Source of the DNA: Acidobacteriota bacterium
Lineage (GTDB): Bacteria > Acidobacteriota > UBA6911 > JACQSX01
Direction: 5' to 3'
DNA: 25,546 nucleotides
Assembly: GCA_036507075.1 (NCBI GenBank)
Contig: DASXQR010000162.1
Coordinates: 1-25,546, forward strand
Shown here: one piece after another, positions 8,946 to 25,546 of the stretch
Layout: each line of letters opens with the position of its first letter
How positions within the stretch are numbered: the first letter of the stretch is position 1
Position numbers and translations under genes: made by a program
Notes under the pieces: generated by a model
What the model was told of the DNA's origin: nothing
What the model saw: only the letters and a program-made list of their open reading frames with translations
The model's database searches: none

Positions 8946-9680
8946 TCAATATCGGGAGCGGTAAAAGAATTCGTCACGGGTGATTACACCGTCCCTATTT
9001 CTATCCAGCCGCTCGAAATCTCTCATGCTGCCGTGCCATTCATTGGGTCTGATCAGCGCGTCGCCGTTGCGATCCAGGGATGCAAAACTGTCGACGCGGC
9101 GGGTATCGATTCGCCCGAAGAATTCGTCGCGCGTCAGCAGGTTGTTGCGGTCAACATCCAACCGGCCAAACAACGCGTCGTTGCGGAATTCATCGCGCGA
9201 CACCAGCCCGTCATTGTTCAAGTCTAAGCGACGGAAGCGGTCATCGGAAATAATGACATTGTTTCGGACCCTTCCTCGCGCTCCGGCCCGGGCTTCATCG
9301 CCGGAAAGAACGCCGTCGCCGTTCCGGTCATGGACAGCGAACGAATTGTCATTTCCGCGCCACTCGTCCCGCGTGATCACGCCGTCGCCATTACGATCCA
9401 TCCCGCGGTGTCGAATGTGGCCGCCTTGCACGCGCGCAGCGTTGGGGCCATAAAAAACGCGATTACCTCGCTCGACCCGGACAACCTCGCCTGCGTTCCG
9501 ACCCCGGTGTCGAAAGTCATTGTCTCGCTGTTCGAATTTCAACTGTTTTTCTACTTTGTTCTCCTTGAAATGCCCTTTGCCATGGCCCTTTCCGCCCTTG
9601 TCCGCGAGTACGGGAGACATCACAGCGGCGGCTGCAAAAGTGATCAAAAAGCATCGACTTAACAGTACCGTAAAACGCAT
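8946..9680 (-). CDS. Secreted multi-EF-hand calcium-binding protein
   Basis: Signal peptide (MRFTVLLSRCFLITFAAAAVMSPVLA-D). Six EF-loop-like motifs: DRNGDGVITRDE, DRNGDGVLSGDE, DLNNDGLVSRDE, DVDRNNLLTRDE, DRNGDALIRPNE, DRNRDGVITRDE. GGAGG RBS. Confidence 0.88.
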   Translation of the reverse strand: MRFTVLLSRCFLITFAAAAVMSPVLADKGGKGHGKGHFKENKVEKQLKFEQRDNDFRHRGRNAGEVVRVERGNRVFYGPNAARVQGGHIRHRGMDRNGDGVITRDEWRGNDNSFAVHDRNGDGVLSGDEARAGARGRVRNNVIISDDRFRRLDLNNDGLVSRDEFRNDALFGRLDVDRNNLLTRDEFFGRIDTRRVDSFASLDRNGDALIRPNEWHGSMRDFERLDRNRDGVITRDEFFYRSRY

Positions 9681-9964: not shown

Positions 9965-12202
9965 ATGACGATCAGGATCCGAGAAAAATCCTTCGCCCCA
10001 GCGATCCTTTCGTGTGCTGTTTTGGCGATCGGTCTTTCCGCCCCGCAGCAGGATCGTCTCCAGGTGCAGAGCCGGTTCTTTCCCGTGGCGGTCTGGTATG
10101 GGGGCGGCAAAGCACGCGCGCCCATGTTGGAGCCGGTAACGGCCGAGTCGCGCCGCTTGTGGCGTGAAGATCTGCTCAAGATCAGGGAGCTGGGTTTCAA
10201 TACGGTCCGATGCTGGATTGAATGGACGGCATGCGAGCCCCGGCAGGGAGACTTTCATTTTGAACAATTGGAGCTGATGCTCAGTCTTGCCGAGGAACTG
10301 GATTTGCGGGTGCTTGTCCAGGTCTACGTCGATTCGGCACCCGACTGGGTAGCCAGGAAGTATCCCGACAGTTTGTTTGTGGCGCAGAACGGCGCTGCAA
10401 TACGGTCACAATCGGCGCCCGGGTATTGCTTTGATCATCCCGGCGTGCGCAAAGGCGTGCTCGGTTTCTACCAGGAGGCGGCTCGCCGGGCGCGCAAAAG
10501 CAAGGCCTTCTTCGGATGGGACCTTTGGAGCGAGCCTCACATCATTAACTGGGCCATCATCGAATACATACCAAACGCCACCTTCTGCTATTGCCCGAAT
10601 TCAATAGAAAGGTTTCGCCGGTGGCTTCAGTCCAGATACGGAAGCCTGGATCATCTCAACGCGGCCTGGTATCGAAGATTTGATGACTGGAAGGAAGTCG
10701 AACCGCCCCGTTTTGGAACCATCCTTTCCTATACCGACTATATTGACTGGCGTGTGTACGTCGCCGACAAGCTCGCCGAAGACCTTCGGCTGCGCCATGA
10801 AGCCATAAAGCAGATCACACCGGACCGGGTCACCACCAGCCACGCGGCTGTGCCTTCGGTTTTCACCAATCCTGCCGCGGGCGACGGCACGCCGGATGAT
10901 TTCCTGATGAATCAAGTGGTCGACTACTGGGGAACCAGTTTTTATCCAAAGCATTCCTTTCCCTCGTCCCACTGGTCGCTGGCGCGAAGAACGCTGGCGA
11001 TGGATTTCACGCGCTCGGTGAGCGGCGACAAGGGGTTTTACGTGGGCGAGCTGCAGGCCGGATTCGGCACCAGAGGCGTGGTGGTAGGCGAAGAAATTAC
11101 CCCCGCTGATCTGGAGCTTTACACCTGGGGCATGGTGGCGCGGGGCGCTCGTGCCATCAGCTACTACGCGTTTTATCCGATGAGCTCAGGGTACGAATCG
11201 GGCGGGTACGGTCTGGTGGGACTGGACGGGGCGTTGACGGAGCGAAGCCGCCGCGCGGGCGACAACGCGCGCCGGATTGCATCAAATTCGGATCTTATTC
11301 TGGCGGCCCGTCCGGCCCCGGCCGAAGCGGCTGTCCTGTATAACCGGCTTTCGATTCTGGTGGGAGGGGAACAGACCTCGGGCAACCGCGCCGCATTGCG
11401 TGACTCGACGGCGGGCTATCATCGGATATTTTTTGAACGAAATATCCCGCTGGATTTCCTGAGCGCCTCTGTTTTAACGGAAGAGCAACTGAAGAAATAC
11501 AAGCTGGTGATTGTGCCGTACCCGATATTAATGACGCAGCAGATTTCCGACCTGCTGGCCCGCTATGTGGAGCAGGGCGGGCGCCTGTTTCTGGAGGCGA
11601 GGGCGGGATGGAATGACCAGCGAGGGTACGCCCAACCCGTGATTCCCGGCTTCGGCTGGCACAAAATTCTGGGAGTGCGTGAAAAATCGGTGACGCCGCG
11701 CGCCGAGTCGATGATCCGCTGGGGCGAATATTCCTTCCTGTCTTCGACCATGGAAGAACGCTTCGAAATCCTGAGCGACGCGGCCCGTGCCGTGGCCTCT
11801 TTTGAAGACGGCTCGCCGGCCGCCTTCGAACGCTCGTACGGGCGCGGCAGGGTAATCATATTGGGAGGGTTTGCCGGGCTGGCGAACGAGCTGAAACCGG
11901 CCGTCCGGCACCCTCTGGGGACATTTTTTGCGGAGTGGGCGGGACTGAAATCTCCCAAACTGACGGCGTCACACTTTGTGGAACTGCGCGAGCTGCACGC
12001 TCCTTTGGGAAGGATGGTGCTTTTCTTCAATCATGATTCGCAGCCGGTTCAGGCCGATTACACGGCGTCGCTGGATAAGCCGGCCGGAAAGATAAAGGAG
12101 TTGATCGGCGGCGCCGAGGTGACGCCCTCGGAAACTAAGGAACAGCGCCTCCGGACGGATTTGCCTGCAAACAGCGTGCGCGTGTTTCGCATCGACTATT
12201 GA
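9965..12202 (+). CDS. Glycoside hydrolase family 42-like (beta-galactosidase-like) with predicted signal peptide
   Basis: Motifs LGFNTVR, WTACEP.QG.F.F, PDW, WDLWSEP (acid/base Glu), CYC..S..RFR.WL..RYG.L..LN.AW, GELQAG (nucleophile), and a trimerisation-domain-like C-terminus. Confidence 0.88.
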   Translation: MTIRIREKSFAPAILSCAVLAIGLSAPQQDRLQVQSRFFPVAVWYGGGKARAPMLEPVTAESRRLWREDLLKIRELGFNTVRCWIEWTACEPRQGDFHFEQLELMLSLAEELDLRVLVQVYVDSAPDWVARKYPDSLFVAQNGAAIRSQSAPGYCFDHPGVRKGVLGFYQEAARRARKSKAFFGWDLWSEPHIINWAIIEYIPNATFCYCPNSIERFRRWLQSRYGSLDHLNAAWYRRFDDWKEVEPPRFGTILSYTDYIDWRVYVADKLAEDLRLRHEAIKQITPDRVTTSHAAVPSVFTNPAAGDGTPDDFLMNQVVDYWGTSFYPKHSFPSSHWSLARRTLAMDFTRSVSGDKGFYVGELQAGFGTRGVVVGEEITPADLELYTWGMVARGARAISYYAFYPMSSGYESGGYGLVGLDGALTERSRRAGDNARRIASNSDLILAARPAPAEAAVLYNRLSILVGGEQTSGNRAALRDSTAGYHRIFFERNIPLDFLSASVLTEEQLKKYKLVIVPYPILMTQQISDLLARYVEQGGRLFLEARAGWNDQRGYAQPVIPGFGWHKILGVREKSVTPRAESMIRWGEYSFLSSTMEERFEILSDAARAVASFEDGSPAAFERSYGRGRVIILGGFAGLANELKPAVRHPLGTFFAEWAGLKSPKLTASHFVELRELHAPLGRMVLFFNHDSQPVQADYTASLDKPAGKIKELIGGAEVTPSETKEQRLRTDLPANSVRVFRIDY

Positions 12203-12210
12203 ACGGCCCC

Positions 12211-12334
12211 AAATGCGGAATGAAGAATGCGGAATGTTGAATGCGGAATGCGGAATGTATTCTAGTTGAATTTCTTCGGCTAAGAGAGAGCCCCTCCCTT
12301 CTATTCCGAAATCCGCATTCCGAAATCCGCATTT
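12211..12334. repeat. Inverted-arm element, GAATGCG/CGCATTC heptamer family
   Basis: Left aaatgcg gaatgaa gaatgcg gaatgtt gaatgcg gaatgcg gaatg; right attccgaaatccgcattccgaaatccgcattt. Confidence 0.88.
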
Positions 12335-12354
12335 GACGGAAATCGACTTTCTGA

Positions 12355-13629
12355 TTGAACAGAATGGAAAGCCAAAGCCAGCACGAACTCGAATCGCGAA
12401 TACGACTGGGGGGCGGCAAAAAAAATATCGCCAGACAGCACGAAAAGGGGAGGCTGACCGCTCGCGAGCGAGTGGATAAGCTGATCGATCCGGATACCTG
12501 CTTTTTTGAGATCGGATTATGGGCGGCATGGGGAATGTACGAACAGTGGGGAGGCGCTCCGGCGGCGGGCCTGGTGTGCGGCGTGGCAAGAGTTTCCGGC
12601 GTTCGCCACATGATCATTGCCAACGACGCGACCGTGAAGGCCGGTTCCTTTTTCCCGATGACGGTCAAGAAAATGCTGCGCGCCCAGCATATCGCCATGA
12701 TCGCGCGCATACCCTTAATTTACCTGGTCGATTCGGCCGGCGTTTTCCTGCCGCTGCAGGATGAAATTTTTCCTGATCAGGACGACTTCGGCCGAATCTT
12801 CCGAAATAATGCCGTGATCAGCGCCATGGGAATTCCACAGACCGCCGCCATCATGGGCTCCTGCGTGGCCGGAGGCGCCTACCTTCCCGTGATGTGCGAT
12901 CGCATCCTGATGACCGAGGGAAGCGGCTTGTACATAGCCGGACCTTCCCTGGTCAAGGCCGCCATCGGACAGGACATCGACAGCGACCGTCTGGGCGGCG
13001 CAAAGCTGCACGCCTCGCTCAGCGGCACGGTCGACTTTCGCGAAGAAGACGAGCCGTCGTGCCTGGAGAAATTGCGCCGTCTGGCGGCCGCCTCAGGCGC
13101 GCCCAGAAGCCTTGTCTACGAGCGCGGCGTTGAAGGAGCGAGGCCGGTGGAAAACGAGCGAAAGCCGGACGGCGCCGTTTTCGACGCAATCGATGCCGGC
13201 ACGATTGAGTTCACCGTTGTGCTGGATGAGCCGGTACTGCTGATCGGCCTCAAGCCGGGCTTCTCGCGCCGGATCGATTTGCACTCCGCCAGGCGCGCCC
13301 TGGAGCGCGCGCGCAACGAAAAAACCATCCTGCTGCTCGACTGCAGTTTCGATCCGCAGTACGCGGAGGATTTGGCGGCGTTCAGCTCCTTTTCGCTGCA
13401 CATCGCGCAGCTCGACCTTGTTACCCTGGTGCACTTGCAAAACTGCGAGAACACAACAATCGTGCAGTTGGCGCGCTCGGTCAGACCGGCGCTGGTAGTC
13501 AGTCCCTATTCGGAGGCGGGCATCCAGGCGGCCAGATCTCTCTGGATCGATGTCCTCTATGCGCCGGAAAATTTCCCGGCGGTTCTTAAAGAAGGTCTGC
13601 AACTGTTGCGGGAGCAGGCCGGGCAATGA
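12355..13629 (+). CDS. Acyl-CoA carboxylase carboxyltransferase (MCC-beta-like) with intact N-domain and shortened, divergent C-domain
   Basis: Motifs GGG...RQHEKGRLTARERV..LID, IIANDATVKAG, YLVDSAGVFLP.QDEIFPD..DFGRIF, MGSCVAGGAY.P, AGPSLVKAA.G, LGGA.LH...SG. Similarity fades after about aa 245. Start is TTG 12355 or ATG 12364. Confidence 0.85.
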   Translation: MNRMESQSQHELESRIRLGGGKKNIARQHEKGRLTARERVDKLIDPDTCFFEIGLWAAWGMYEQWGGAPAAGLVCGVARVSGVRHMIIANDATVKAGSFFPMTVKKMLRAQHIAMIARIPLIYLVDSAGVFLPLQDEIFPDQDDFGRIFRNNAVISAMGIPQTAAIMGSCVAGGAYLPVMCDRILMTEGSGLYIAGPSLVKAAIGQDIDSDRLGGAKLHASLSGTVDFREEDEPSCLEKLRRLAAASGAPRSLVYERGVEGARPVENERKPDGAVFDAIDAGTIEFTVVLDEPVLLIGLKPGFSRRIDLHSARRALERARNEKTILLLDCSFDPQYAEDLAAFSSFSLHIAQLDLVTLVHLQNCENTTIVQLARSVRPALVVSPYSEAGIQAARSLWIDVLYAPENFPAVLKEGLQLLREQAGQ

Positions 13630-15840: not shown

Positions 15841-17310
15841 ATGAAACCCAGAAATTTAGGGGAGCTGAAAAAAGCCGGGTACCGGTCCCGGTCGGTGAAA
15901 GACGAAGTCCGAGCCAACCTGATCCGGCACCTAAGCAACAATGGAGGACCCCTGTTTCAGGGAATCATCGGTTACGAGGAGACTGTCGAGCCCCACATCG
16001 TCAATGCAATTCTTTCCCGCCATAATTTCATCCTGCTGGGCCTGCGAGGGCAGGCAAAGAGCCGCATCCTGCGCGGTCTGGCAAACCTGCTCGATCCGGA
16101 ACTGCCGGTAATCGCCGGTTGTGAAATCAACGATGATCCCCTGCGACCTCTGTGCCGCGCCTGTCGGGAGCGTTCCCAGGAAGCGGGAGACAATTTGCCG
16201 GTCGCGTGGCTGCCGCGCTCGGCCCGCTACGTGGAGAAACTCGCCACCCCGGACGTGACGGTGGCCGACTTGATCGGCGACATCGACCCTATTCGCGCCG
16301 CAAAGGAGGGCCGCGTTCTGAGCGACGAGATGACGATTCACTACGGCCTGCTGCCGCGCGCCAATCGAGGCATCTTTGCCATCAATGAGCTGCCGGATCT
16401 GGCTCCCAAAATTCAGGTGGGCCTGTTCAACATCATGCAGGAAGGCGACATCCAGATTAAGGGATATCCGGTGCGGCTTCCGCTCGACGTGCTGCTGGTT
16501 TTTTCAGCCAACCCGGAAGACTACACGGCGCGAGGCAAAATCATCACTCCGCTCAAAGATCGGATCGGATCGGAGATCAAGACCCATTATCCGGTGAGCG
16601 TACGCGAGGGTGTGCGCATCACCGAGCTGGAAGCGTGGACGGACCGCCAGGCGGCGCTGCCAGTGATAATCCCGTCGTTTATCCGCGACATTGTCGAGCA
16701 GGTGGCGTTTTTGGCGCGCGATGATCAGCGCGTCGACAAGCGTTCCGGCGTAAGCCAGCGCATGCCTATCAGTTGCATGGAGAACGTCATCAGCAACGCG
16801 GAACGGCGCGCGCTGAAAAACAATGAAAAGACCGCAGTGACGCGGCCTGCCGACATCTACAGCGCGCTGCCGGCGCTCACGGGCAAGATGGAGCTCGAGT
16901 ATGAGGGCGAGCTGCGCGGCGCTGAAAACATCGCGCGCGAGCTGATCCGTTCCAGCATTCAAAAACTTTTCCCGCAGTATTTCTCGGGCGTCGACACTCG
17001 CCCGATTGTGGAGTTTTTTGAGCTGGGAGGATCATTGAAGCTCGACAGCATGGCCTCGCGCGAAACCGCCATGCGCGAGCTCAAGAAAGTTCAGGGTCTG
17101 CTGGAGAAAGCAGCCGGGATAAAAATGGATGCCCATGCCGATGCCAAAGACGACAACTTCAGGATTTCGGCCGCCGAGTTTCTGCTCGAGGGACTATATT
17201 CAATAAAGAAGATCAGCCGCACCGAAGAACGTGTTTACATGCGCTCTGAAGAAAAGAAGGAGGAGCGATTCTACGGCGAATTTGAGAGGATGAAAAAGCC
17301 ACTCAATTAA
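15841..17310 (+). CDS. AAA+ ATPase, MoxR/ChlI-like (Rv0958-type)
   Basis: Walker A variant GLRGQAKS; YVEKLATPD.TVADLIGDIDP; RANRGIFAINELPDL; ANPEDYT.RG.IITPLKDR.GSEI.THYP; SGVSQR. Confidence 0.9.
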   Translation: MKPRNLGELKKAGYRSRSVKDEVRANLIRHLSNNGGPLFQGIIGYEETVEPHIVNAILSRHNFILLGLRGQAKSRILRGLANLLDPELPVIAGCEINDDPLRPLCRACRERSQEAGDNLPVAWLPRSARYVEKLATPDVTVADLIGDIDPIRAAKEGRVLSDEMTIHYGLLPRANRGIFAINELPDLAPKIQVGLFNIMQEGDIQIKGYPVRLPLDVLLVFSANPEDYTARGKIITPLKDRIGSEIKTHYPVSVREGVRITELEAWTDRQAALPVIIPSFIRDIVEQVAFLARDDQRVDKRSGVSQRMPISCMENVISNAERRALKNNEKTAVTRPADIYSALPALTGKMELEYEGELRGAENIARELIRSSIQKLFPQYFSGVDTRPIVEFFELGGSLKLDSMASRETAMRELKKVQGLLEKAAGIKMDAHADAKDDNFRISAAEFLLEGLYSIKKISRTEERVYMRSEEKKEERFYGEFERMKKPLN

Positions 17311-17313
17311 GAC

Positions 17314-17672
17314 AATGCGGAATGGCGAATGCGGAATGGGGAATGGGGAATGCGGAATGGGGAATGCGGAATGGGGAATGCGGAATGGGGAATGCGGAAT
17401 GGGGAATAGGAATATGGAATGGTACGATGTCCGAGGAGTGGACTGGAAGTTGAGCGCAGGATGTCTAGCGGATTTCTCACCTTTGACCCCGGGCAAGAAG
17501 TTCTTGCTATTGAAAGAATTATTCCGCATTCCGCATTCCCTATTCTGCATTCCGCATTCCGCATTCCGCATTCCCCATTCCGCATTCCGACTTCCGACTT
17601 CCGACTTCCGCATTCGGAAGTTCCGCATTCCGCATTCGTCAGTTCCTCATTCCGCATTCCGAATTCCGCAAT
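17314..17672. repeat. Large inverted-arm element, GAATGCG/GAATGGG versus CGCATTC/CCCATTC
   Basis: Left array 17314-17421, unique spacer of about 100 bp, right complementary array 17519-17672 including cgacttc variants. Confidence 0.93.
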
Positions 17673-17701
17673 TCAAAATTCACAGGCAAGCTCACTAGGA
17701 T

Positions 17702-18928
17702 ATGCCAAAGATTGTTTTCGGCAAATGGACCGGTGAAGACTGGGACTCGATCAGCCTGGAAGAATTGATCAACCGGCTGAGCAACGCGCTCCTGAACAGC
17801 GGTTTCTACGACCCGTATTTCGAGTATTCCCAGAACAGCAGCGATTTAGATGTGAGCAGTCTTTACCAGGCGCTGATTCGCGCCCTGCTCGAACAGGGAC
17901 TGCTCAGCCAGGAACAGCTTGATTCCATGACCGACGCCGATGGAAATCCCAATCAGGAGCTCAAAGATATTCTGGATCGGCTGATCGCGCGCATGATGCA
18001 GGAAGGCTACCTGAGGCAGGAAGAAAATAAACCGGGCTCGGGACAGGGACGCAGCAGCACCCCCGCCCGCTTTGAGATTACCGACAAAACGGTCGATTTT
18101 CTCGGCTTCAAGACACTCAAAGACCTGCTTGCATCGCTGGGGCGCAGCAGCTTCGGCCGGCACGACACCAATTCTCTTTCCACAGGAGTGGAGGCGTTCG
18201 AATCGAGCAAGCAGTATGAATTCGGCGATTATTTGAATCTCGATATCAGCGAGACGCTGCTGAACAGCGTCAAGCGCCAGGGCAAGAGTTTCCCCATCAG
18301 CCTGGAGTATCCGGACCTGATGGTGCGCCAGACCGAATACCAAAGCTCCTGTGCCACCGTTTTGCTGCTGGATACCAGTCACAGCATGATTTTGTATGGC
18401 GAGGACCGTTTCACTCCCGCCAAGCGAGTGGCGCTGGCGCTGTCACATCTGATTCGAACTCAATATCCGGGCGATTCGCTTCATGTGATTTTGTTTCACG
18501 ACACGGCCGAAGAGATCCCCCTCAAAACGCTGGCCCGCGTCCAGGTTGGTCCCTACCACACCAATACGCGCGAAGGGCTGCGGCTGGCGCGCAGCATTCT
18601 CAATCGCGAGCGCAGGGACATGCGCCAGATCATTATGATCACCGATGGTAAGCCCTCTGCCGTGACGCTGCCCAACGGGCAGATCTACAAGAACTCGTTC
18701 GGGCTTGATCCAATGATCATCGGGGAGACATTCAAAGAAGTCGGCTACTGCCGGCGCAGCGGAATCCTGATCAACACGTTTATGCTGGCGCGGGACCACT
18801 ATCTGGTCGAATTCGTGAAAAACGTGGCTCAGATCTGCCGCGGTAAGGCATACTTCACCACCACGCTCAATCTGGGGCAGTACATTTTGATGGATTACAT
18901 GAAGAAGAAACGGCAGACGATTCACTGA
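17702..18928 (+). CDS. VWA-domain protein (partner of the AAA+ ATPase, Rv0959-type)
   Basis: MIDAS motif [22 protein letters not shown]; also YEFGD...LD...TL, RFTPAK.VALAL..LI..QYPGD, INTFML. Confidence 0.9.
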
Positions 18929-19094: not shown

Positions 19095-19460
19095 ATGTCC
19101 AAAAACGCAGCACCGGTGTTCACCTTCATTCTGGCATTATCGTTTTTGGCGGCGCAGGAGGCGCCGCCGGAAAAGAACAAAGAAGAACTGGTCAAGAAGC
19201 TTACCGAGATGGGCATCACGGTGAAGAATCAGCCCGTGATGCTGGCCGAGGTTTTTACCGTAGCGCCCGAAGACTCCAAGATGGTAGTGAGGCTGGGGAA
19301 TCCGACCAGAACCATGGTCCTCGGCATCGGAGAAAAAGCCACCGTAAAGCAGGGAAAGAAGACCATCAAGCTCAAGGACCTGAAACGGGGCGACAAAGTG
19401 ATTTTACTCCTGGATGCCAAGACCACCATGGTGGCGGAGATATACCTGGACAAAAAATGA
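19095..19460 (+). CDS. Exported hypothetical protein, probable small beta-barrel/OB-type fold
   Basis: AGGAG RBS; signal peptide (VFTFILALSFLAA-QE); beta-rich, ending in IKLKDLKRGDKVILL...VAEIYL. Confidence 0.8.
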   Translation: MSKNAAPVFTFILALSFLAAQEAPPEKNKEELVKKLTEMGITVKNQPVMLAEVFTVAPEDSKMVVRLGNPTRTMVLGIGEKATVKQGKKTIKLKDLKRGDKVILLLDAKTTMVAEIYLDKK

Positions 19461-19574
19461 ACCGCCAAGAGCGCCAAGCCCGCGAAGCTTTCATTTCACC
19501 CGGCGGTTACTTCTGGTGTGCTATACCGGAGTTCTCTCAAATCGCTTGGCGTTCTTGGCGCTCTTTGCGGTTCA
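19458..19574. repeat. Inverted-arm element, GAACCGCCAAG family, between convergent genes
   Basis: Left tgaaccgccaagagcgccaagcccgcgaag; right cttggcgttcttggcgctctttgcggttca. Its first 3 nt are the TGA stop of 19095-19460. Confidence 0.88.
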
Positions 19575-19579
19575 AGCTT

Positions 19580-20041
19580 TCATTCCCGGACGGGGCGGCC
19601 GTAGTTTGTGCCCCAGGCGCTCACCATTTCCGAATCGCTGTCGACGATCTTCCAAATTCCGGCTTCCTTTCTCAAAAGGAAACTCTGACGGGTGTTGCGT
19701 TCCGCATAAATGGTTTCGGTGGAAAGCACGATTGTATCGGGTCCCTGCGTTTGCCGCCCGATGATGGCGAAACCCTTGACCGCGCCGCTTCGATCTTTGA
19801 GCAAGCGCGACAATTCTCCCTCGCCCTGACGCTGCGAGATATCTTCCAGACGGCGTCTCAGGTCGCCTCCGAACAGATCAACCCACTGCGACACGCTGCC
19901 CTCGCCCATGGCTTGCACCATGTCCAGCAGCGCGTCGTCTGGTGACCCCGTTTGGACCGCCCCAGGCCTCTGCGCATCGCGCAACATGAAATAGGTAAAG
20001 CCGGCGATCAGCAGGAGAGCCGGTATTACTCTTTTGGCCAT
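19580..20041 (-). CDS. Membrane-anchored hypothetical protein (NTF2/DUF4878-like pattern)
   Basis: Start set at MAKRVIPALLLIAGFTYFML (N-terminal TM), since the longer start lies in a repeat. SPDDALLDMVQAM helix and F.LRKEAGIWKIV strand pattern. Confidence 0.8.
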   Translation of the reverse strand: MAKRVIPALLLIAGFTYFMLRDAQRPGAVQTGSPDDALLDMVQAMGEGSVSQWVDLFGGDLRRRLEDISQRQGEGELSRLLKDRSGAVKGFAIIGRQTQGPDTIVLSTETIYAERNTRQSFLLRKEAGIWKIVDSDSEMVSAWGTNYGRPVRE

Positions 20042-20046
20042 AGACT

Positions 20047-20137
20047 CGGGTTTACGGGTGGCCGGGTTTCGGGTTGGCACAAAGTTTCGTTAATTCGGAA
20101 CCCGTAACCAGCAAACTCGTAACCCGAAAACCGGTAA
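20047..20137. repeat. Inverted-arm element, GGGTTAC/GTAACCC family
   Basis: Left cgggtttacgggtggccgggtttcgggttggc; right cccgtaaccagcaaactcgtaacccgaaaaccggtaac; abuts the hflK stop. Confidence 0.78.
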
Positions 20138-21151
20138 CTATTTTTTCTGAACTTCCAGAATATCCAGATCAAGCCCCTGCGCTTTGCCGCTGTCATCCAG
20201 GATCACCTTTCGGATCCTGGGCAGGATGTCTTCCATCGCTTCCAGAAACAGCCGCGCCGTGGTGACCCTTCGGTGATCCCTGTACTCCTGCCACAGCGTG
20301 GTAAAACGATCCGATTCGCCGCGCGCCCGGTTTTCCAGCTCGTTGCGATATATCTCGGATTGCTGCATCAGTTCCTGTGCCGAGCCGCGCGCCCGGGGAA
20401 GAAGCTCGTTGGCGTATCCATTCGCTTCCTGAACGATGCGATTGCGATCCTCTCGCGAGTTTGCCACTTCCAAAAATGCGTCCCGTACTTCTTCAGGAGG
20501 ACTGACCTGCTCGAGGGCCACGCTGGTTATCGTGATCCCCAGTCCCAGCGTCTCGCCTGACTCCTGCAGCGCCTGCTGTACTTCGTTCTGCAGCGCTATG
20601 CGTTCGACGGTCAAAATGTCATCCACTTTGCGGGACGCCACTGCGCGTGACATGCACTGAAAGAACAAACCTTCCAGGATCGAAGGGAGACTTTCGGAGC
20701 GATACAGGTAACCGGCCGGGTCCTGAATGTAGTACTGGATCCACGCCTGCAATCGCACCAGGTTCTGATCGCCCGTAAGCAGGTATTCATCCGGGGTGGC
20801 GGCCCCCACTCCGAGAGCACGGCTCAAGTCGGTGCTTCCGATGGCAAGCCGCTGCGCTTCATTTACTTTCAATCGAATCACGCGCTCCGCCGGGAACGGC
20901 CATGCGTAATGGAGTCCGGGTTGCACGCGCTGCCGCATCAGCTTTCCAAAACGGACTCGAACTGCCTGTTGATCGGCGGGAACGTAGAACAGCCCCGAAA
21001 GCAGATAGATCACAAGCAGGCCGCCGACCAGCCATCGCGGTTGCGACTTCAACCGCGCCAGGGACTCAGCCAAGCGGCGAAAATGAGAATGCTTCACCCG
21101 TGGGTGCATGTGACCATGTTGATGACCGTGATCATGATGTTCGTCGTGCAT
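20138..21151 (-). CDS. hflK: HflK-like SPFH protein with His-rich N-terminus
   Basis: Starts MHDEHHDHGHQHGHMH; TM LVGGLLVIYLLSGLF; RFGK, PGLHYAWPFP, LLTGDQNLV, VDDILT, PPEEVRDAF.EV..SREDR....EA.GYAN...P.ARG, VT..RLFLEAME.IL. Confidence 0.92.
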   Translation of the reverse strand: MHDEHHDHGHQHGHMHPRVKHSHFRRLAESLARLKSQPRWLVGGLLVIYLLSGLFYVPADQQAVRVRFGKLMRQRVQPGLHYAWPFPAERVIRLKVNEAQRLAIGSTDLSRALGVGAATPDEYLLTGDQNLVRLQAWIQYYIQDPAGYLYRSESLPSILEGLFFQCMSRAVASRKVDDILTVERIALQNEVQQALQESGETLGLGITITSVALEQVSPPEEVRDAFLEVANSREDRNRIVQEANGYANELLPRARGSAQELMQQSEIYRNELENRARGESDRFTTLWQEYRDHRRVTTARLFLEAMEDILPRIRKVILDDSGKAQGLDLDILEVQKK

Positions 21152-21176
21152 CTCAAATCCCGGCAGGAAGAAAAAC

Positions 21177-21329
21177 AAAGCCGTCTACGTCCACGTGTAC
21201 GACCACGTCAACGTCCACGCCTACGTCTACCGATGAGTTGTGGTAAAGACGGTAATCCTTTGACAGCGCGCCGGCGCAGGCGTTGTGGTGGACATTGACG
21301 TGGTCGTGCGCGTGGACGTAGACGGCTTT
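21177..21329. repeat. Inverted-arm element built of hexamers (YACGTC/GACGTR)
   Basis: 42-bp arms at 21177-21218 and 21288-21329 complementary with 3 mismatches. Confidence 0.92.
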
Positions 21330-21388: not shown

Positions 21389-22285
21389 TCATTTCACCAG
21401 TTTCCCGTTCTTGCCTGCGGTCAAAAGTTTCAGCAGCTCGGAATCGGCCGAAAGGACAGCCGTGGTTTTCTCATCCAGGATCTTGCGATAGGCCTGCAGC
21501 GTGCGCACCATTTGATAGAAATCAGGATCTCGCGAAAAGGCTTTGCCGTAAATTCGCGTCGCCTCGGCGTCTCCCTTGCCGCGCACAATTTCCGCTTCTT
21601 TGTAGGCATTGGATAAGATCTCTTCAGCGGCGCGATCGGCTTCGGCGCGGATCTTTCTCGCTTCCTCTTCTCCTTCGGCCCGGTACTGCTTGGCGATCCG
21701 CTCGCGCTCGGCGCGCATGCGGGCGAACACACTTTCCCGGTTTTGCGCGGGAAGGTTGAGCCGTTTGATTTCCACTGAGGCGATGCGGATCCCGTAGCGC
21801 GAGCGCGCCAGATTCCTGCACTCTCCAGTCACCGCCTTCATCACCGCGCCCACTTTCACGTGTTCCACGTCGGTGGAAACCAGTTCGGCAAGGGTTGTTT
21901 TTCCGAGTTCTGCTGATACCTGGGACCAGACGATATCGTGCAGGCGCATTTCGGCTCCGGCCCTGTCGCCGACGGTTCGCAGAAACAACAGCGGATCTTC
22001 CACCTGCCAGCAGACATAGTTCTCCACCAGAAGGTTCTTTTTGTCGCGCGTCAGATATTCGGACGGGCGCGGGTTGTAAAAATGCAATCGCTTATCTATG
22101 CGCGTAATTCCCTGGAACGGCAACTTGAATTTCAAGCCGGCATCCCGGTACTCGGCCACGGGCCGCCCGAATTGAGTCACCAGCACATAGTCCGTCTCAG
22201 CCACCGTGAAGAAGCTGGCGTAGCCAGCCAGCAGCGCCGCTGTAATCCAGAGTTTCTTTTGTTTCACCAATTCCATCGCCTTCAT
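21389..22285 (-). CDS. hflC: HflC-like SPFH protein
   Basis: AAGGAGGT RBS before MKAMEL; motifs VTQFGRP, AGLKFKLPF, EYLTRDKKNLLV, W.V.DP..F, GI.I..VEIKRL.LP, VFARMRAERERIA.QYRAEGEEEA..IRAEAD, G.GDAEA..IY..AFS.DP.FY...RTL.AY. Confidence 0.95.
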   Translation of the reverse strand: MKAMELVKQKKLWITAALLAGYASFFTVAETDYVLVTQFGRPVAEYRDAGLKFKLPFQGITRIDKRLHFYNPRPSEYLTRDKKNLLVENYVCWQVEDPLLFLRTVGDRAGAEMRLHDIVWSQVSAELGKTTLAELVSTDVEHVKVGAVMKAVTGECRNLARSRYGIRIASVEIKRLNLPAQNRESVFARMRAERERIAKQYRAEGEEEARKIRAEADRAAEEILSNAYKEAEIVRGKGDAEATRIYGKAFSRDPDFYQMVRTLQAYRKILDEKTTAVLSADSELLKLLTAGKNGKLVK

Positions 22286-22318
22286 ATCGAACCTCCTTCC
22301 AGTTGGCGGTGACTCGCC

Positions 22319-22532
22319 GTAGCGACGCGGCATGCCGCGTCGGAGTTGGCCGCGACATGTCGCGGCCCTGTCGCCGCCGGCTGCTCCATGCCCGGCCGCG
22401 ACATGTCGCGGCCTGACTCTGACGCGGCATGCCGCGTCGCTACGTGGGCGTCGCTACGTGAGCGCGGCGGAGCTCAGCCCCGGGGGCGCGATTTATCGCG
22501 CCCGCCTCAGACGCGATGTATCGCGTCTCTAC
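22319..22532. repeat. Cluster of six REP-like palindromes (REPIN/BIME-like)
   Basis: gtag-cgacgcggcatgccgcgtcg (22323-42); ggccgcgacatgtcgcggcc x2 (22348-67, 22394-413); gacgcggcatgccgcgtc-gctac (22421-43); gggcgcgatttatcgcgccc (22484-503); agacgcgatgtatcgcgtct-ctac (22509-32). Confidence 0.92.
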
Positions 22533-22542
22533 GAACGCCGAA

Positions 22543-25533
22543 CTACTTCTTCAAAGCCTTTTCCAAATCCGCGAAGTTAAAAATCGAATCACGAACCAGC
22601 ATCATCTTTCGCCGGCCCGACCTTTGATCAAGGATGTACTTGGACTTGTCGCCCAGCGCGGCTTCCACAGCTTCCAGATAAAGGCGCGTGCGGGTAGTCT
22701 GCGGCGCAGTTCGATAGGCGTCGTACTGCAAGTTGAAGCGCTGCGCTTCTCCCGTGCCGCGATTGACGCGCCGCATGCGGTAAGCTTCCGCCTCAATCTG
22801 TCTTTTCTGCGATTCCCCGCGCGCCAGCGGAAGGCGCTCGTTGGCGTAAGCCTGCGCCTGGTTGATCATGCGGTTCTTTTCCTCCAGAGCGCCGGCCACC
22901 TCGCGGAAAGACCCCACCACCTCCAGCGCCGGATGCACATCCTGGAGATTGAACGACAGCACCTGTACTCCCAGGTTGAGCCTGGAAGCTTCCTGCTCTG
23001 TCATCTGCGCCGCCAGCCGCTCTACCTCATCGCGGTCCAGCGCCAGCACCTGATCAAGAGACATGAAGCCCACCACATAGCGCAAAGATCCTTCGCACAC
23101 GGCTCTCAACGCCCCCTGCAGATTGTCTAATGCGAATAGATAACGCTTCGGGTCCCGGATTGAATACTGGACGATGGCGTTGACTTCCACCAGGTATTCG
23201 TCTCCCGTGAGCATCAAAGCTTCATCAGGCCGGCGGATGTAGCCGCCCTGGCGATGCTGGATATTCCACTCGTATGCGGCCGGCTCCATCCGGGCTGCCG
23301 GATCGCTCGCGATGCGAAAGCCGATCTCAAGCGAATTGACCCGCGCCGGCCGGATTCTATGCAAACGCTCTACCGGCCATGGCAAAACGTAACGGAGGCC
23401 GGGCAAAAGCGGATGCTCCGAAACGCGGCCGAAGCGCTGCACGATCCCGATCTCATCGGAACGGATTACGGCGACCCCGGACAGCAGGTACAAGGCGGGA
23501 AGTCCCACCGCAGCCGCTCGCAGCCATTCCTTCCGATGCCGGCGCGCCCACTGCGACACAGCGGCAAAGCGAACCGGCGTTCGAATGGAAGCATCCAGAC
23601 GCTTGCGCGCTTCTGCCAGGCGGTGACCGACATGATGGGGCAGCAGGTTCACGGATCTTTTCTGAAGGAGCTTCAGCGAGTTCATCAGCACCAGAAATGA
23701 GGAGCATTGATGCACTACCGCCGCGGCAATCGCGCTCAGGTAACCGGCAAAGGCTGCCAGTACCGCCGTGAGATTTACGATCAGTCCAAACCAGAGGATG
23801 TTGTCCTGGATAGTTTTCAAAGTGCGCCGGCTCGCCCGGATCAACTCGGCCAGGCGGTCCAGTCCTCCCGATCCCATTAACACCACTCCAGCCGCCTCGG
23901 CCGCAATATCGGTTCCCGTGTCGCCCATGGCGATGCCGACATCGGCGGCGGCAAGCGATGGGGAATCATTGACGCCGTCGCCCACCATTGCCACTGTGTA
24001 ATTGCGCTGCTTCAGTTCCTGAAGCCGGGCGAGCTTCTCTTCCGGAAGAAGGTCGGCGTACACTTCGGAGATTCCCACCGCCCGGGCCACGCGTTGAGCT
24101 GCCTGCGCGTGATCGCCGGTAAGCAGGACCGTCTTGTGGATTCCCAGATGCTGAAGCTGATGAATGGCGCGTGCCGATTCCGGGCGCACCGCATCACGCA
24201 GGATGAGCGCGCCGGCGAGCCGGTTCTGCACGCCTATTAGAATCGCAATCGATCCTTCGCCGGCATACCGGCCCAGGGCTTCGCGCTGCGCGTCGGAAAA
24301 TGCGACCCCTTTTTGCTGAAGAAAGCGCGCGCTTCCAACCAGCACATGACCGGCCTGCAGCGTGCCTTCCATTCCCAAACCCGGATATCTCTGCACAGCG
24401 TCAGCATGGCAAGGGACTACGTGCTGCCGGTTGGCGGCGTCCCGGATCGCCTGAGCCAGAAGATGCTCCGAGTGGGACTCGATCGAAGCCGCGAAGGCAA
24501 GCAGATCGTTTCCACGGTAATCGTCAAACGGCACAATCTCGACCAGCTCAGGACGTCCCAGCGTCAATGTTCCGGTCTTGTCGAAGGCCACGCAATTCAC
24601 CTGAGCAAGTCTTTCCAGATGAATCCCGCCTTTAACGATGATTCCGCGTCTGGCCAGCGCGCTGATGGACGCCAGAACCGCCGCGGGGGTGGCGAGCACC
24701 ATGGGGCATGGACAGGCGACGATTAGAATCGCGATGGCGCGCATCCAGTCGCGAGTGATCAGGAAGCAGGCTCCGGCGATCAGCAGCACCAGCGGAAGAA
24801 ACCACCGGGCATAGCGATCCGCGGTGCGCTGAATGGGCGCTTTGTTTTCCCTGGCGTGGCGAACCAGATCGACAATGCGGCTCAAGACGGTCGATTCGCC
24901 CACCTGCACGGCGTGAAGCACCAGCCGGCCGGTCTGGTTGAGCGTGCCGGCGAACACCGCATCGCTCGCGGCGCGCTCGCGCGGAACCGATTCACCCGTG
25001 ATGGAGCTTTCATCCACCAGAGAAATCCCTTCCACTATTTCGCCGTCCACTGGAATGCGCTGGCCCGGGTAGACCAGCACGGTTTCGCCGATGCGAATTT
25101 CTTCCAGGTGAACCTTGTGCTCGGCGCCGTCGCGTATCACGCTGGCATGATGAGGGAGGCAGGAAAGGAGCCGCTTGATGTCGGAGTGGAAGCGTCGCGC
25201 TGCGTACTCTTCCAGCGTTTCGCCCACCAGCATGATGTAAACCACTTCGGCCGCGGCCAGGTACTGGCCGACATAGAGCGCCGCCAGAGCGGCCACCGTC
25301 ACTGCCTGGTCGGCGCTGATTCTCAGAGCGATCGCATCCTGGAAGGATTTCAGGAATGTCCTGTAGCCGAAAACGAACGTGAGCGCGATGGCCAGGTCCC
25401 ATTGGAAGGGAGATCGGATCCATTGCTGCCAGTAGGCGATCAACGTCAGCCCGGCCAGACCCAGGCCTGCAAATCGCCACCGAAAGTTGTGGTCGCCTTC
25501 CAGTTGTGGATTGTGGAGCAGGGGAAAGAACAT
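22543..25533 (-). CDS. P1B-type heavy-metal-translocating ATPase fused to a C-terminal HflK/SPFH domain
   Basis: ATPase motifs PG.RIPVDG, DESSITGES, IVACPCP..LATP, FDKTGTLT, SEHLLA, LTGD, LLPEEK, MVGDGVNDSPSLAAADVGIAM. Then in frame: TM, VQRFGR, PGL...LPWPVE, MLTGDE, LQDVHP..EV..SF.EV.GA.EE..R.INQA.AYAN...P.ARGE, TRTRLYLEAVE. Confidence 0.95.
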   Translation of the reverse strand: MFFPLLHNPQLEGDHNFRWRFAGLGLAGLTLIAYWQQWIRSPFQWDLAIALTFVFGYRTFLKSFQDAIALRISADQAVTVAALAALYVGQYLAAAEVVYIMLVGETLEEYAARRFHSDIKRLLSCLPHHASVIRDGAEHKVHLEEIRIGETVLVYPGQRIPVDGEIVEGISLVDESSITGESVPRERAASDAVFAGTLNQTGRLVLHAVQVGESTVLSRIVDLVRHARENKAPIQRTADRYARWFLPLVLLIAGACFLITRDWMRAIAILIVACPCPMVLATPAAVLASISALARRGIIVKGGIHLERLAQVNCVAFDKTGTLTLGRPELVEIVPFDDYRGNDLLAFAASIESHSEHLLAQAIRDAANRQHVVPCHADAVQRYPGLGMEGTLQAGHVLVGSARFLQQKGVAFSDAQREALGRYAGEGSIAILIGVQNRLAGALILRDAVRPESARAIHQLQHLGIHKTVLLTGDHAQAAQRVARAVGISEVYADLLPEEKLARLQELKQRNYTVAMVGDGVNDSPSLAAADVGIAMGDTGTDIAAEAAGVVLMGSGGLDRLAELIRASRRTLKTIQDNILWFGLIVNLTAVLAAFAGYLSAIAAAVVHQCSSFLVLMNSLKLLQKRSVNLLPHHVGHRLAEARKRLDASIRTPVRFAAVSQWARRHRKEWLRAAAVGLPALYLLSGVAVIRSDEIGIVQRFGRVSEHPLLPGLRYVLPWPVERLHRIRPARVNSLEIGFRIASDPAARMEPAAYEWNIQHRQGGYIRRPDEALMLTGDEYLVEVNAIVQYSIRDPKRYLFALDNLQGALRAVCEGSLRYVVGFMSLDQVLALDRDEVERLAAQMTEQEASRLNLGVQVLSFNLQDVHPALEVVGSFREVAGALEEKNRMINQAQAYANERLPLARGESQKRQIEAEAYRMRRVNRGTGEAQRFNLQYDAYRTAPQTTRTRLYLEAVEAALGDKSKYILDQRSGRRKMMLVRDSIFNFADLEKALKK

Positions 25534-25546
25534 GGTTACTCTTTAA

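Follow-up and report, generated by a model that had tools for sequence, protein, structure and literature searches.

The window examined here is the entire contig C162, 25,546 nucleotides of DNA from an Acidobacteriota bacterium with a 6.1-Mb genome, 95.7% complete. At its right-hand end, on the reverse strand, lies a gene that joins a heavy-metal P1B-ATPase and the scaffold protein HflK (HflK1 hereafter) in one polypeptide chain. This fusion is real. It heads a four-gene unit and is followed by HflC, a second, unfused HflK (HflK2) and a small protein with an NTF2-like domain (protein X). The unit is read here as an SPFH cage built specially for a metal exporter, with the chain of pump and HflK1, HflC and the free HflK2 placed in one ring; we infer the assembly, the metal and the direction of transport, and the chances of this reading are about even. 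In its support stand the unbroken frame of the fusion, catalytic motifs that are all intact, conservation of the four genes as a unit, the exchange of three unrelated metal-transporter families and a loop confined to first-position HflK subunits.

The fusion gene and its reading frame

The features of the unit are as follows (aa, amino acids; ORF, open reading frame):
22543–25533, reverse strand: fusion gene, P1B-ATPase, linker and HflK1, 996 aa (ORF call, Pfam, NCBIfam, AlphaFold model)
23665–25533, reverse strand: P1B-ATPase part, aa 1–623, with helices MA, MB and M1–M6 and the A, P and N domains (Pfam, NCBIfam, model)
24706–24714, reverse strand: CPC in M4, aa 274–276, in 109/109 full-length homologues (alignment)
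24568–24582, reverse strand: DKTGT phosphorylation motif, aa 318–322, 109/109 (alignment)
23710–23712, reverse strand: His608 in M6 (HQxSS-like), invariant in 107/107 (aligned column)
23536–23664, reverse strand: basic linker, predicted helical and cytoplasmic, aa 624–666 (model, alignment)
22546–23535, reverse strand: HflK1 part, aa 667–996, membrane helix, SPFH domains and coiled coil (Pfam, NCBIfam, model)
23254–23274, reverse strand: YEWxxxH loop in the SPFH hinge, aa 754–760, in 107/109 homologues (alignment)
21389–22285, reverse strand: HflC (TIGR01932, 187 against a cut-off of 134), with the likely start at 22285 behind AAGGAGG and the longest ORF reaching 22333
20138–21178, reverse strand: HflK2, unfused, with a His-rich N-terminal tail (TIGR01933, 205 against 159)
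19580–20041, reverse strand: protein X, about 153 aa, N-terminal membrane helix and NTF2-like domain (fold match, neighbour clustering)
22318–22503, no strand: palindromic REP-like repeats in the gap between the fusion and hflC, outside the conserved unit; the genes abut in most homologues

The fusion ORF is in one frame and free of stops throughout, which bears out an earlier note made from the sequence of this DNA alone. Pfam places E1-E2_ATPase (126–296), Hydrolase (313–531) and Band_7 (689–897) in the order for which that note had proposed to search. The protein scores 571 bits against NCBIfam TIGR01525 (heavy-metal P-type ATPase, curated cut-off 346) and 195 bits against TIGR01933 (hflK, 159). 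The ATPase part stops at L623, at about position 23665; the linker takes up residues 624 to about 666, and residues 667–691 form the HflK helix, in good agreement with the end near 23660 and the basic linker of about 45 aa given before. The HflK had also been called complete, and its helix, SPFH region and coiled coil are indeed present, but the full-length enterobacterial model PRK10930 reaches only 135 against 660. The note had overlooked HflC, the second HflK, the NTF2-fold protein and the related hmtA-type operons. Assignment of HflK1 to TIGR01933 is based on the profile score, the helix, SPFH and coiled-coil layout and the adjacent HflC.

The AlphaFold model of the fusion (mean predicted local distance difference test, pLDDT, 83; predicted template modelling score, pTM, 0.61) contains eight ATPase helices and the linker, itself helical, then the ninth helix at residues 667–685, and after it the strands of the SPFH region and an extended coiled coil. 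Its top structural matches in Foldseek are the P1B-ATPases 4BBJ, 7R0G and 4UMW. Since the termini of P1B-ATPases are cytoplasmic and the orientation of HflK in the membrane is established, the topology proposed in the note, with a cytoplasmic ATPase C-terminus leading into the HflK membrane helix and a periplasmic SPFH region, holds.

Only 13 bases separate the start of the ORF from the contig end; as the close homologues P0008 and P0017 start at the same place, the N-terminus is likely whole. At the junction, the note had seen no obvious start or ribosome-binding site. An in-frame GTG is present there (V628), while a ribosome-binding consensus is not, and a Met anywhere in the linker was found in only 29/109 homologues. 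A Logan contig of run X1 spans 22568–25546, and thus the junction, with 0 differences and 0 gaps, although the window DNA may itself derive from X1. No listed piece from runs X2 and X3 crosses the junction (X2 lacks cover from 22942 to 23817 and X3 holds short pieces), which makes both uninformative. The best-matching holders of the window sequence are soil metagenomes, and no RNA dataset was among the holders listed.

With its sole junction-spanning contig possibly derived from the window's own source, the fusion might be suspected to be an assembly or sequencing artefact. This is ruled out by the homologues and retains virtually no chance. A search with residues 520–996 returned 420 proteins, and Hydrolase and Band_7 were both present in 120/120 of the homologues listed. 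Among 70 Genome Taxonomy Database (GTDB) loci from independent genomes, 65 hold both halves in an unbroken frame, two are cut by contig ends and three have frameshifts (0 in the linker). The doubt raised in the note, that no other genome might carry the fusion, is thereby dispelled.

The HflK1–HflC–HflK2 trio and its transporters

The nearest homologues of the fusion are found in Acidobacteriota records, and the four-gene unit occurs in records of Acidobacteriota, Verrucomicrobiota, Planctomycetota and Armatimonadota. A record labelled ‘Clostridia’ (L024) was not used for its phylum; it is the same contig place as G210, a genome placed in the phylum of the window. The fusion is uncommon, being present in 16/301 genomes of an even sample of its own phylum (including two unpublished genomes, neither of which carries it) and in 5/201 planctomycete genomes, plus one cut copy. 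A second HflK follows the fusion wherever the contig permits, and the gene for protein X is present in 58/71 loci clustered. Protein X matches no Pfam or NCBIfam family. Its fold consists of three helices and a curved four-strand sheet, as in NTF2-like proteins, with the best VIA match at Z 12.0 (root-mean-square deviation 3.4, 115 aligned) and many NTF2-like chains at Z 9–11. Short matches that might represent stand-alone HflK1 of the P1B clade mostly lie on short contigs or start within the helix, SPFH or ATPase part; one of them, P0132 (359 aa, on a 134-kb contig), could be a true split of the fusion.

Elsewhere, the trio HflK1–HflC–HflK2 carries other transporters: a CDF or SO_0444-family Cu/Zn efflux permease is fused in place of the ATPase, or an unfused P1B-ATPase lies nearby. 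Fusions of CDF and HflK1 occur on an Aquibium plasmid, at locus L104 and in a wider family, in which the HD-HD site is intact in 67/71 aligned full-length members. Just 85–120 residues separate TM5 from the SPFH domain, too few for the usual CDF C-terminal domain. The SO_0444–HflK fusions score 352, 353 and 389 bits against NF033936 (cut-off 300). In the third arrangement, here type (c), an HflK1 with an unassigned region of 6–7 helices comes first, then HflC and HflK2, and last a P1B-ATPase encoded by its own gene. It was found on plasmids of Klebsiella aerogenes, Burkholderia, Rhizobium and Paraburkholderia and in planctomycetes; its N-terminal HflK1 region has no Pfam or NCBIfam match, with all Atlas scores below 0.8.

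Of 32 planctomycete loci fetched, 31 are HflK–HflC(–HflK) units and one is an ordinary hflK. The units comprise five P1B fusions, four CDF fusions, 11 SO_0444 fusions and 11 of type (c), and a metal transporter is fused or adjacent in 30/31, the remaining one (type (c)) ending at a contig edge. These loci were picked because the HflK match sat in a long frame, a choice that cannot reveal trios devoid of a transporter. Protein X was seen among them only with P1B fusions. The P1B, CDF and SO_0444 families consist mostly of exporters, according to their NCBIfam names and the review PMC8456098. The note had taken the fusion as Rosetta-stone evidence that SPFH scaffolds act directly on a transporter. 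The fusion of three unrelated metal-transporter families strengthens this argument, which proves a physical link only and not scaffold action.

Several trio loci have distinctive surroundings. At L104 (145–6597, G022), genes for an MntR/DtxR-like repressor, a TonB-dependent receptor, CDF–HflK1, HflC and HflK2 stand in an unbroken row, and for the metal of the CDF form this is the best regulatory clue. The Aquibium trio operon (L076, 5553–21001) is located amid copper genes, a ZntA-type ATPase, PCu(A)C, SCO, CopC and CopD; PCu(A)C is also found upstream of the trio operon of Paraburkholderia (L108, 1526–8767), and DUF4198 precedes the K. aerogenes unit (L088). Two trio types coexist in single genomes (L109, L020 and L110 in G302; L124 and L143 in G456; L128 and L130 in G368), which suggests different metals or tasks.

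A close known counterpart is the locus PA2439–PA2434 of Pseudomonas aeruginosa, in which three SPFH genes (PaFlo5–7) and the P1B-ATPase gene hmtA likewise form one unit. The ATPase is encoded on its own there, and in the type (c) units fetched, which match the PAO1 locus by gene order and not by sequence, the first HflK bears the unassigned helical region. These units share a W-x3-H loop and the M6 His with the fusion. PA2434–PA2439 rose 5.6- to 14.4-fold in a znuA mutant (PMC4542158), and under Zn depletion a rise was also seen at the protein level, in a study that interpreted the proteins as FtsH interactors (PMC11761036). Deletion of the trio in strain PA14 had slight effects on biofilm and virulence and no effect on tobramycin response, unlike deletion of hflKC, which makes cells sensitive to tobramycin (PMC13086221, 2026); the main text of that paper contains 0 mentions of ‘ATPase’ or ‘hmtA’. 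No description of a P1B-, CDF- or SO_0444–HflK fusion was found in a full-text literature search, with most subscription papers outside its scope, and no paper in it matched FUPA32, a transporter-database lead.

Motifs, phylogeny and flanking features

Motif counts were made over 109 full-length homologues, with proteins shorter than 950 aa dropped (12/121). The ATPase part has the P1B hallmarks: DKTGT, the TGE of the A domain (109/109), CPC, the eight-helix MA–MB–M1–M6 core in the model and a TIGR01525 score above cut-off. The N-terminal CxxC metal-binding domain is absent from the window protein and occurs in 0/109 homologues. Besides His608 in M6, Asn587 in M5 is invariant (107/107), and both residues are candidate metal ligands. 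The Cu+ pumps of subclass P1B-1 (CopA) have YN in M5 and MxxSS in M6, and subclass P1B-2 (ZntA/CadA) has Lys in M5 and D-x-G in M6; these motifs are present in the CopA-like rows of the alignment and in the ZntA-like L076, L134 and L148. In the fused rows, M5 and M6 read xN and HQxSS: the Asn is preceded by Tyr in 0/18, M6 contains Met in 0/18, with His in its stead, and 0/18 have the P1B-2 pair. The combination of CPC, Asn and His points to a site outside the subclasses considered.

The fused ATPases share the fold, CPC, DKTGT and TGE with CopA and ZntA/CadA; unlike them, they lack the N-terminal CxxC domain and form a separate clade (support 100/99). ATPases of unfused trio operons make up another clade (100/100), in which 11/13 have the M6 His; HmtA itself was outside the set, and the broken ATPase of L089 was omitted. 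The best stand-alone plasmid match is an AntA-like ATPase from the antR locus of an Enterobacter plasmid (NZ_CP066096), with 40% identity, CPC and no metal-binding domain. It has YN, no M6 His and no SPFH genes nearby and shows no supported grouping with the fusion; an AntA (antimony) identity of the fused ATPase was rejected on motifs (comparison based on PMC12641948). Actinobacterial plasmid P1B-ATPases with CSC in M4 were seen beside MerR-type regulators (L147, L151).

The linker measures 41–75 aa in the homologues, counted into the HflK helix, and has a net charge of +1 to +12. Further on, the hinge of HflK1 is about 30 residues longer than that of Escherichia coli HflK, and the inserted YEWxxxH loop adjoins the position of R141/E142 of the latter; many ordinary HflK have a shorter loop there. 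A W-x2-4-H motif was found in the hinge of 16/16 P1B-, 14/20 CDF- and 12/13 hmtA-type (type (c)) HflK1, and in 0/45 HflK2 and 0/22 ordinary or unplaced HflK tested. By this comparison, the loop is confined to first-position HflK subunits.

HflK trees were built without the loop columns, and 12 near-duplicate rows were removed before the larger one. In both trees, ordinary HflK, including that of E. coli, form their own branch (support 99) containing no HflK1 or HflK2, and the P1B-HflK1 form one branch (99 and 89). In the larger tree, most HflK2 of all four types cluster (93).

The flanks of the unit vary, with DUF3604, sulfatases, acyl-CoA synthetase and RraA among the neighbours. A DUF3604 protein with a signal-peptide-like start adjoins the unit on either strand in 17/71 loci (e.g., L032, 3860–6466) and is possibly a periplasmic metal client. 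Loci L015 (5621–6283), L016, L014 and L028 have a divergent membrane protein without a Pfam or NCBIfam match; its His/Asp motif is reminiscent of Ni/Co permeases. In the Bryobacterales loci L023, L033, L038–L040, L045, L047, L049, L053 and L059, the 20 bases preceding the GTG start include a conserved TG-extended −10-like box, only a few bases ahead of it, which suggests a leaderless transcript; a scan of the window found no promoter-like site. REP-like palindromes occupy all gaps of the operon (22318–22503, 21177–21329, 20062–20134 and 19458–19574) and recur widely, as summed contig depth jumps at them. More simple or palindromic intergenic repeats lie at 1–200, 12135–12350 and 17307–17700, and many other contigs of this genome share sequence with the start of the contig.

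Elsewhere in the window, 8946–9680 encodes a predicted exported protein with many EF-hand repeats, and a gene pair for an AAA ATPase and a VWA-domain protein (15841–18928) lies downstream on the opposite strand and is not conserved beside the unit. The carboxyl-transferase-like ORF at 12355–13629, in which similarity seems by eye to stop midway, is possibly truncated; it precedes HMG-CoA-lyase-like and enoyl-CoA-hydratase-like genes.

A proposed dedicated cage and its alternatives

HflK/C of E. coli is a 24-subunit cage with a 12+12 ring (bioRxiv 2025.04.21.649849), and its HflK/HflC–FtsH structures (PDB 7VHP, 7WI3, 9CZ1/2, 9PAW) are the closest solved relatives of the HflK part (E 3e-35). The helix–SPFH–coiled-coil layout is the same, and in both cases the HflK and HflC partners share an operon. 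The unit differs in having two HflK paralogues, one of which is joined to a transporter, an insertion of about 30 residues that contains W-x3-H and adjoins R141/E142, and an additional NTF2-fold gene, and in having no hflX or ftsH. By analogy with the E. coli ring, the K positions of a ring in which HflK and HflC alternate would be divided between HflK1 and HflK2. As a spacer, the free HflK2 would keep the bulky pumps below twelve, only some slots carrying a transporter; such a limit on pumps per ring may be why a second HflK comes after the fusion. A Zn- or Cu-type ion would be exported by the pump into a periplasmic chamber under the dome, where W-x3-H loops and protein X would line the wall and catch the metal or pass it on. 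On the cytoplasmic side, His-rich HflK2 tails may stand in for the metal-binding domain that the pump lacks and supply it with metal. It is likely that scaffolds of the HflK1 kind form cages around metal transporters and not around the protease they are known for.

A number of observations weigh against the dedicated cage. The transported ion is a guess, because the membrane site matches none of the P1B subclasses considered, and neither a metal regulator nor an operator recurs next to the P1B fusion in the neighbour clusters or in 38 upstream regions, where a simple palindrome scan and inspection by eye revealed no metal operator. His-rich HflK2 tails occur in a minority of loci only. The W-x2-4-H loop is absent from 12/12 SO_0444-fused and 6/20 CDF-fused HflK1 and has a pLDDT below 50 in the monomer model. 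The deep order conflicts between the two HflK trees; a single origin of all 61 HflK1 is compatible with the data (p-AU, from the approximately unbiased test, 0.90, scoring above the quick free tree), that is, not rejected and not proven. Fused and hmtA-type ATPases form a single clade in 0% of 200 bootstrap trees, while joining them is not rejected (p-AU 0.36). In P. aeruginosa, hmtA mRNA was not Zn-repressed in one study, although Zur was bound at the PA2439 promoter (PMC8531726), and HmtA has been called a Zn/Cu importer (PMC8456098). Two further points concern FtsH: the genome of the window has seven Band_7 genes, of which only the two of the unit are HflK-type, and one FtsH; and at the FtsH-contact positions, HflK1 retain Arg141 in 9/18, Glu142 in 0/18 and Arg185 in 15/18.

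The last points lead to an alternative that we consider unlikely, namely that the trio serves FtsH as a specialised adaptor: the cage would bind FtsH as its E. coli counterpart does, and the fusion would keep the pump next to the protease, to be protected or destroyed according to metal status. R141, E142 and R185 of E. coli HflK matter for FtsH binding (PMC13220708). The Arg185 position is largely kept in HflK1, whereas the 30-residue loop adjoins the contact site, and ordinary non-enterobacterial HflK likewise vary at 141/142. Both HflK parts pass TIGR01933 and HflC passes TIGR01932, and the sister group of ordinary HflK is P1B- plus CDF-HflK1 in one tree and HflK2 in the larger. Genomes G000, G210 and the single-chromosome G305 have no HflK beyond the unit; however, HflK matches are entirely absent from 174/301 genomes in the phylum sample, where a missing ordinary pair is therefore common, and a third HflK-like gene is present in 14/16 fusion-bearing genomes of that sample. 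Eight such genes were fetched, all short and unfused, seven of them clearly paired with hflC. FtsH is not in the 45 largest neighbour clusters, and the PA14 trio deletion lacks the tobramycin phenotype of the hflKC deletion.

The importer report gives rise to another reading, in our view improbable, in which the unit is an uptake device as proposed for HmtA, with the cage and W-x3-H loops gathering scarce periplasmic Zn or Cu for an inward pump. The rise of the hmtA cluster under Zn shortage agrees with it, as do the M6 His common to the fused and 11/13 hmtA-type ATPases and the position of the CDF-type unit L104 behind the repressor and TonB-dependent receptor. The interchangeable CDF and SO_0444 partners, however, belong to efflux families, and the tree does not establish the fused ATPases as HmtA orthologues, HmtA itself being outside the set. 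It is highly unlikely that the fusion merely fixes stoichiometry and keeps the pump within a lipid microdomain or makes it more stable, with the pump outside the ring and no chamber chemistry. The long, basic and variable linker could reach beyond the ring, hmtA-type units work with an unfused ATPase and the PA14 deletion phenotypes are slight, but a specific task in the periplasm is suggested by the near-invariant YEWxxxH loop and by how widely protein X is retained.

We tentatively advance a wider proposal, at somewhat less than even chances. HflK1–HflC–HflK2 would represent a class of SPFH machine not described before, in which a metal chamber in the periplasm is modular and its tethering subunit has acquired at least three unrelated transporters; the free subunit would set the number of transporters per ring, the W-x3-H loop would catch metal for hand-off, and the Zur-regulated hmtA locus of P. 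aeruginosa would be an unrecognised member. The protein families are known, and the unfused locus has been described; the literature search found no account of an SPFH cage tethered to metal transporters that can be exchanged.

How SPFH cages affect membrane proteins other than proteases of the FtsH type is a general question in bacteria and eukaryotes alike. In the present case, a covalent bond ties the client to the cage, its activity is easy to follow (metal-dependent ATP hydrolysis, transport) and it is swapped among three families, so the effect of the cage would be directly measurable. The proposal also offers a testable role for the SPFH trio, so far unexplained, that P. aeruginosa raises when starved of zinc.

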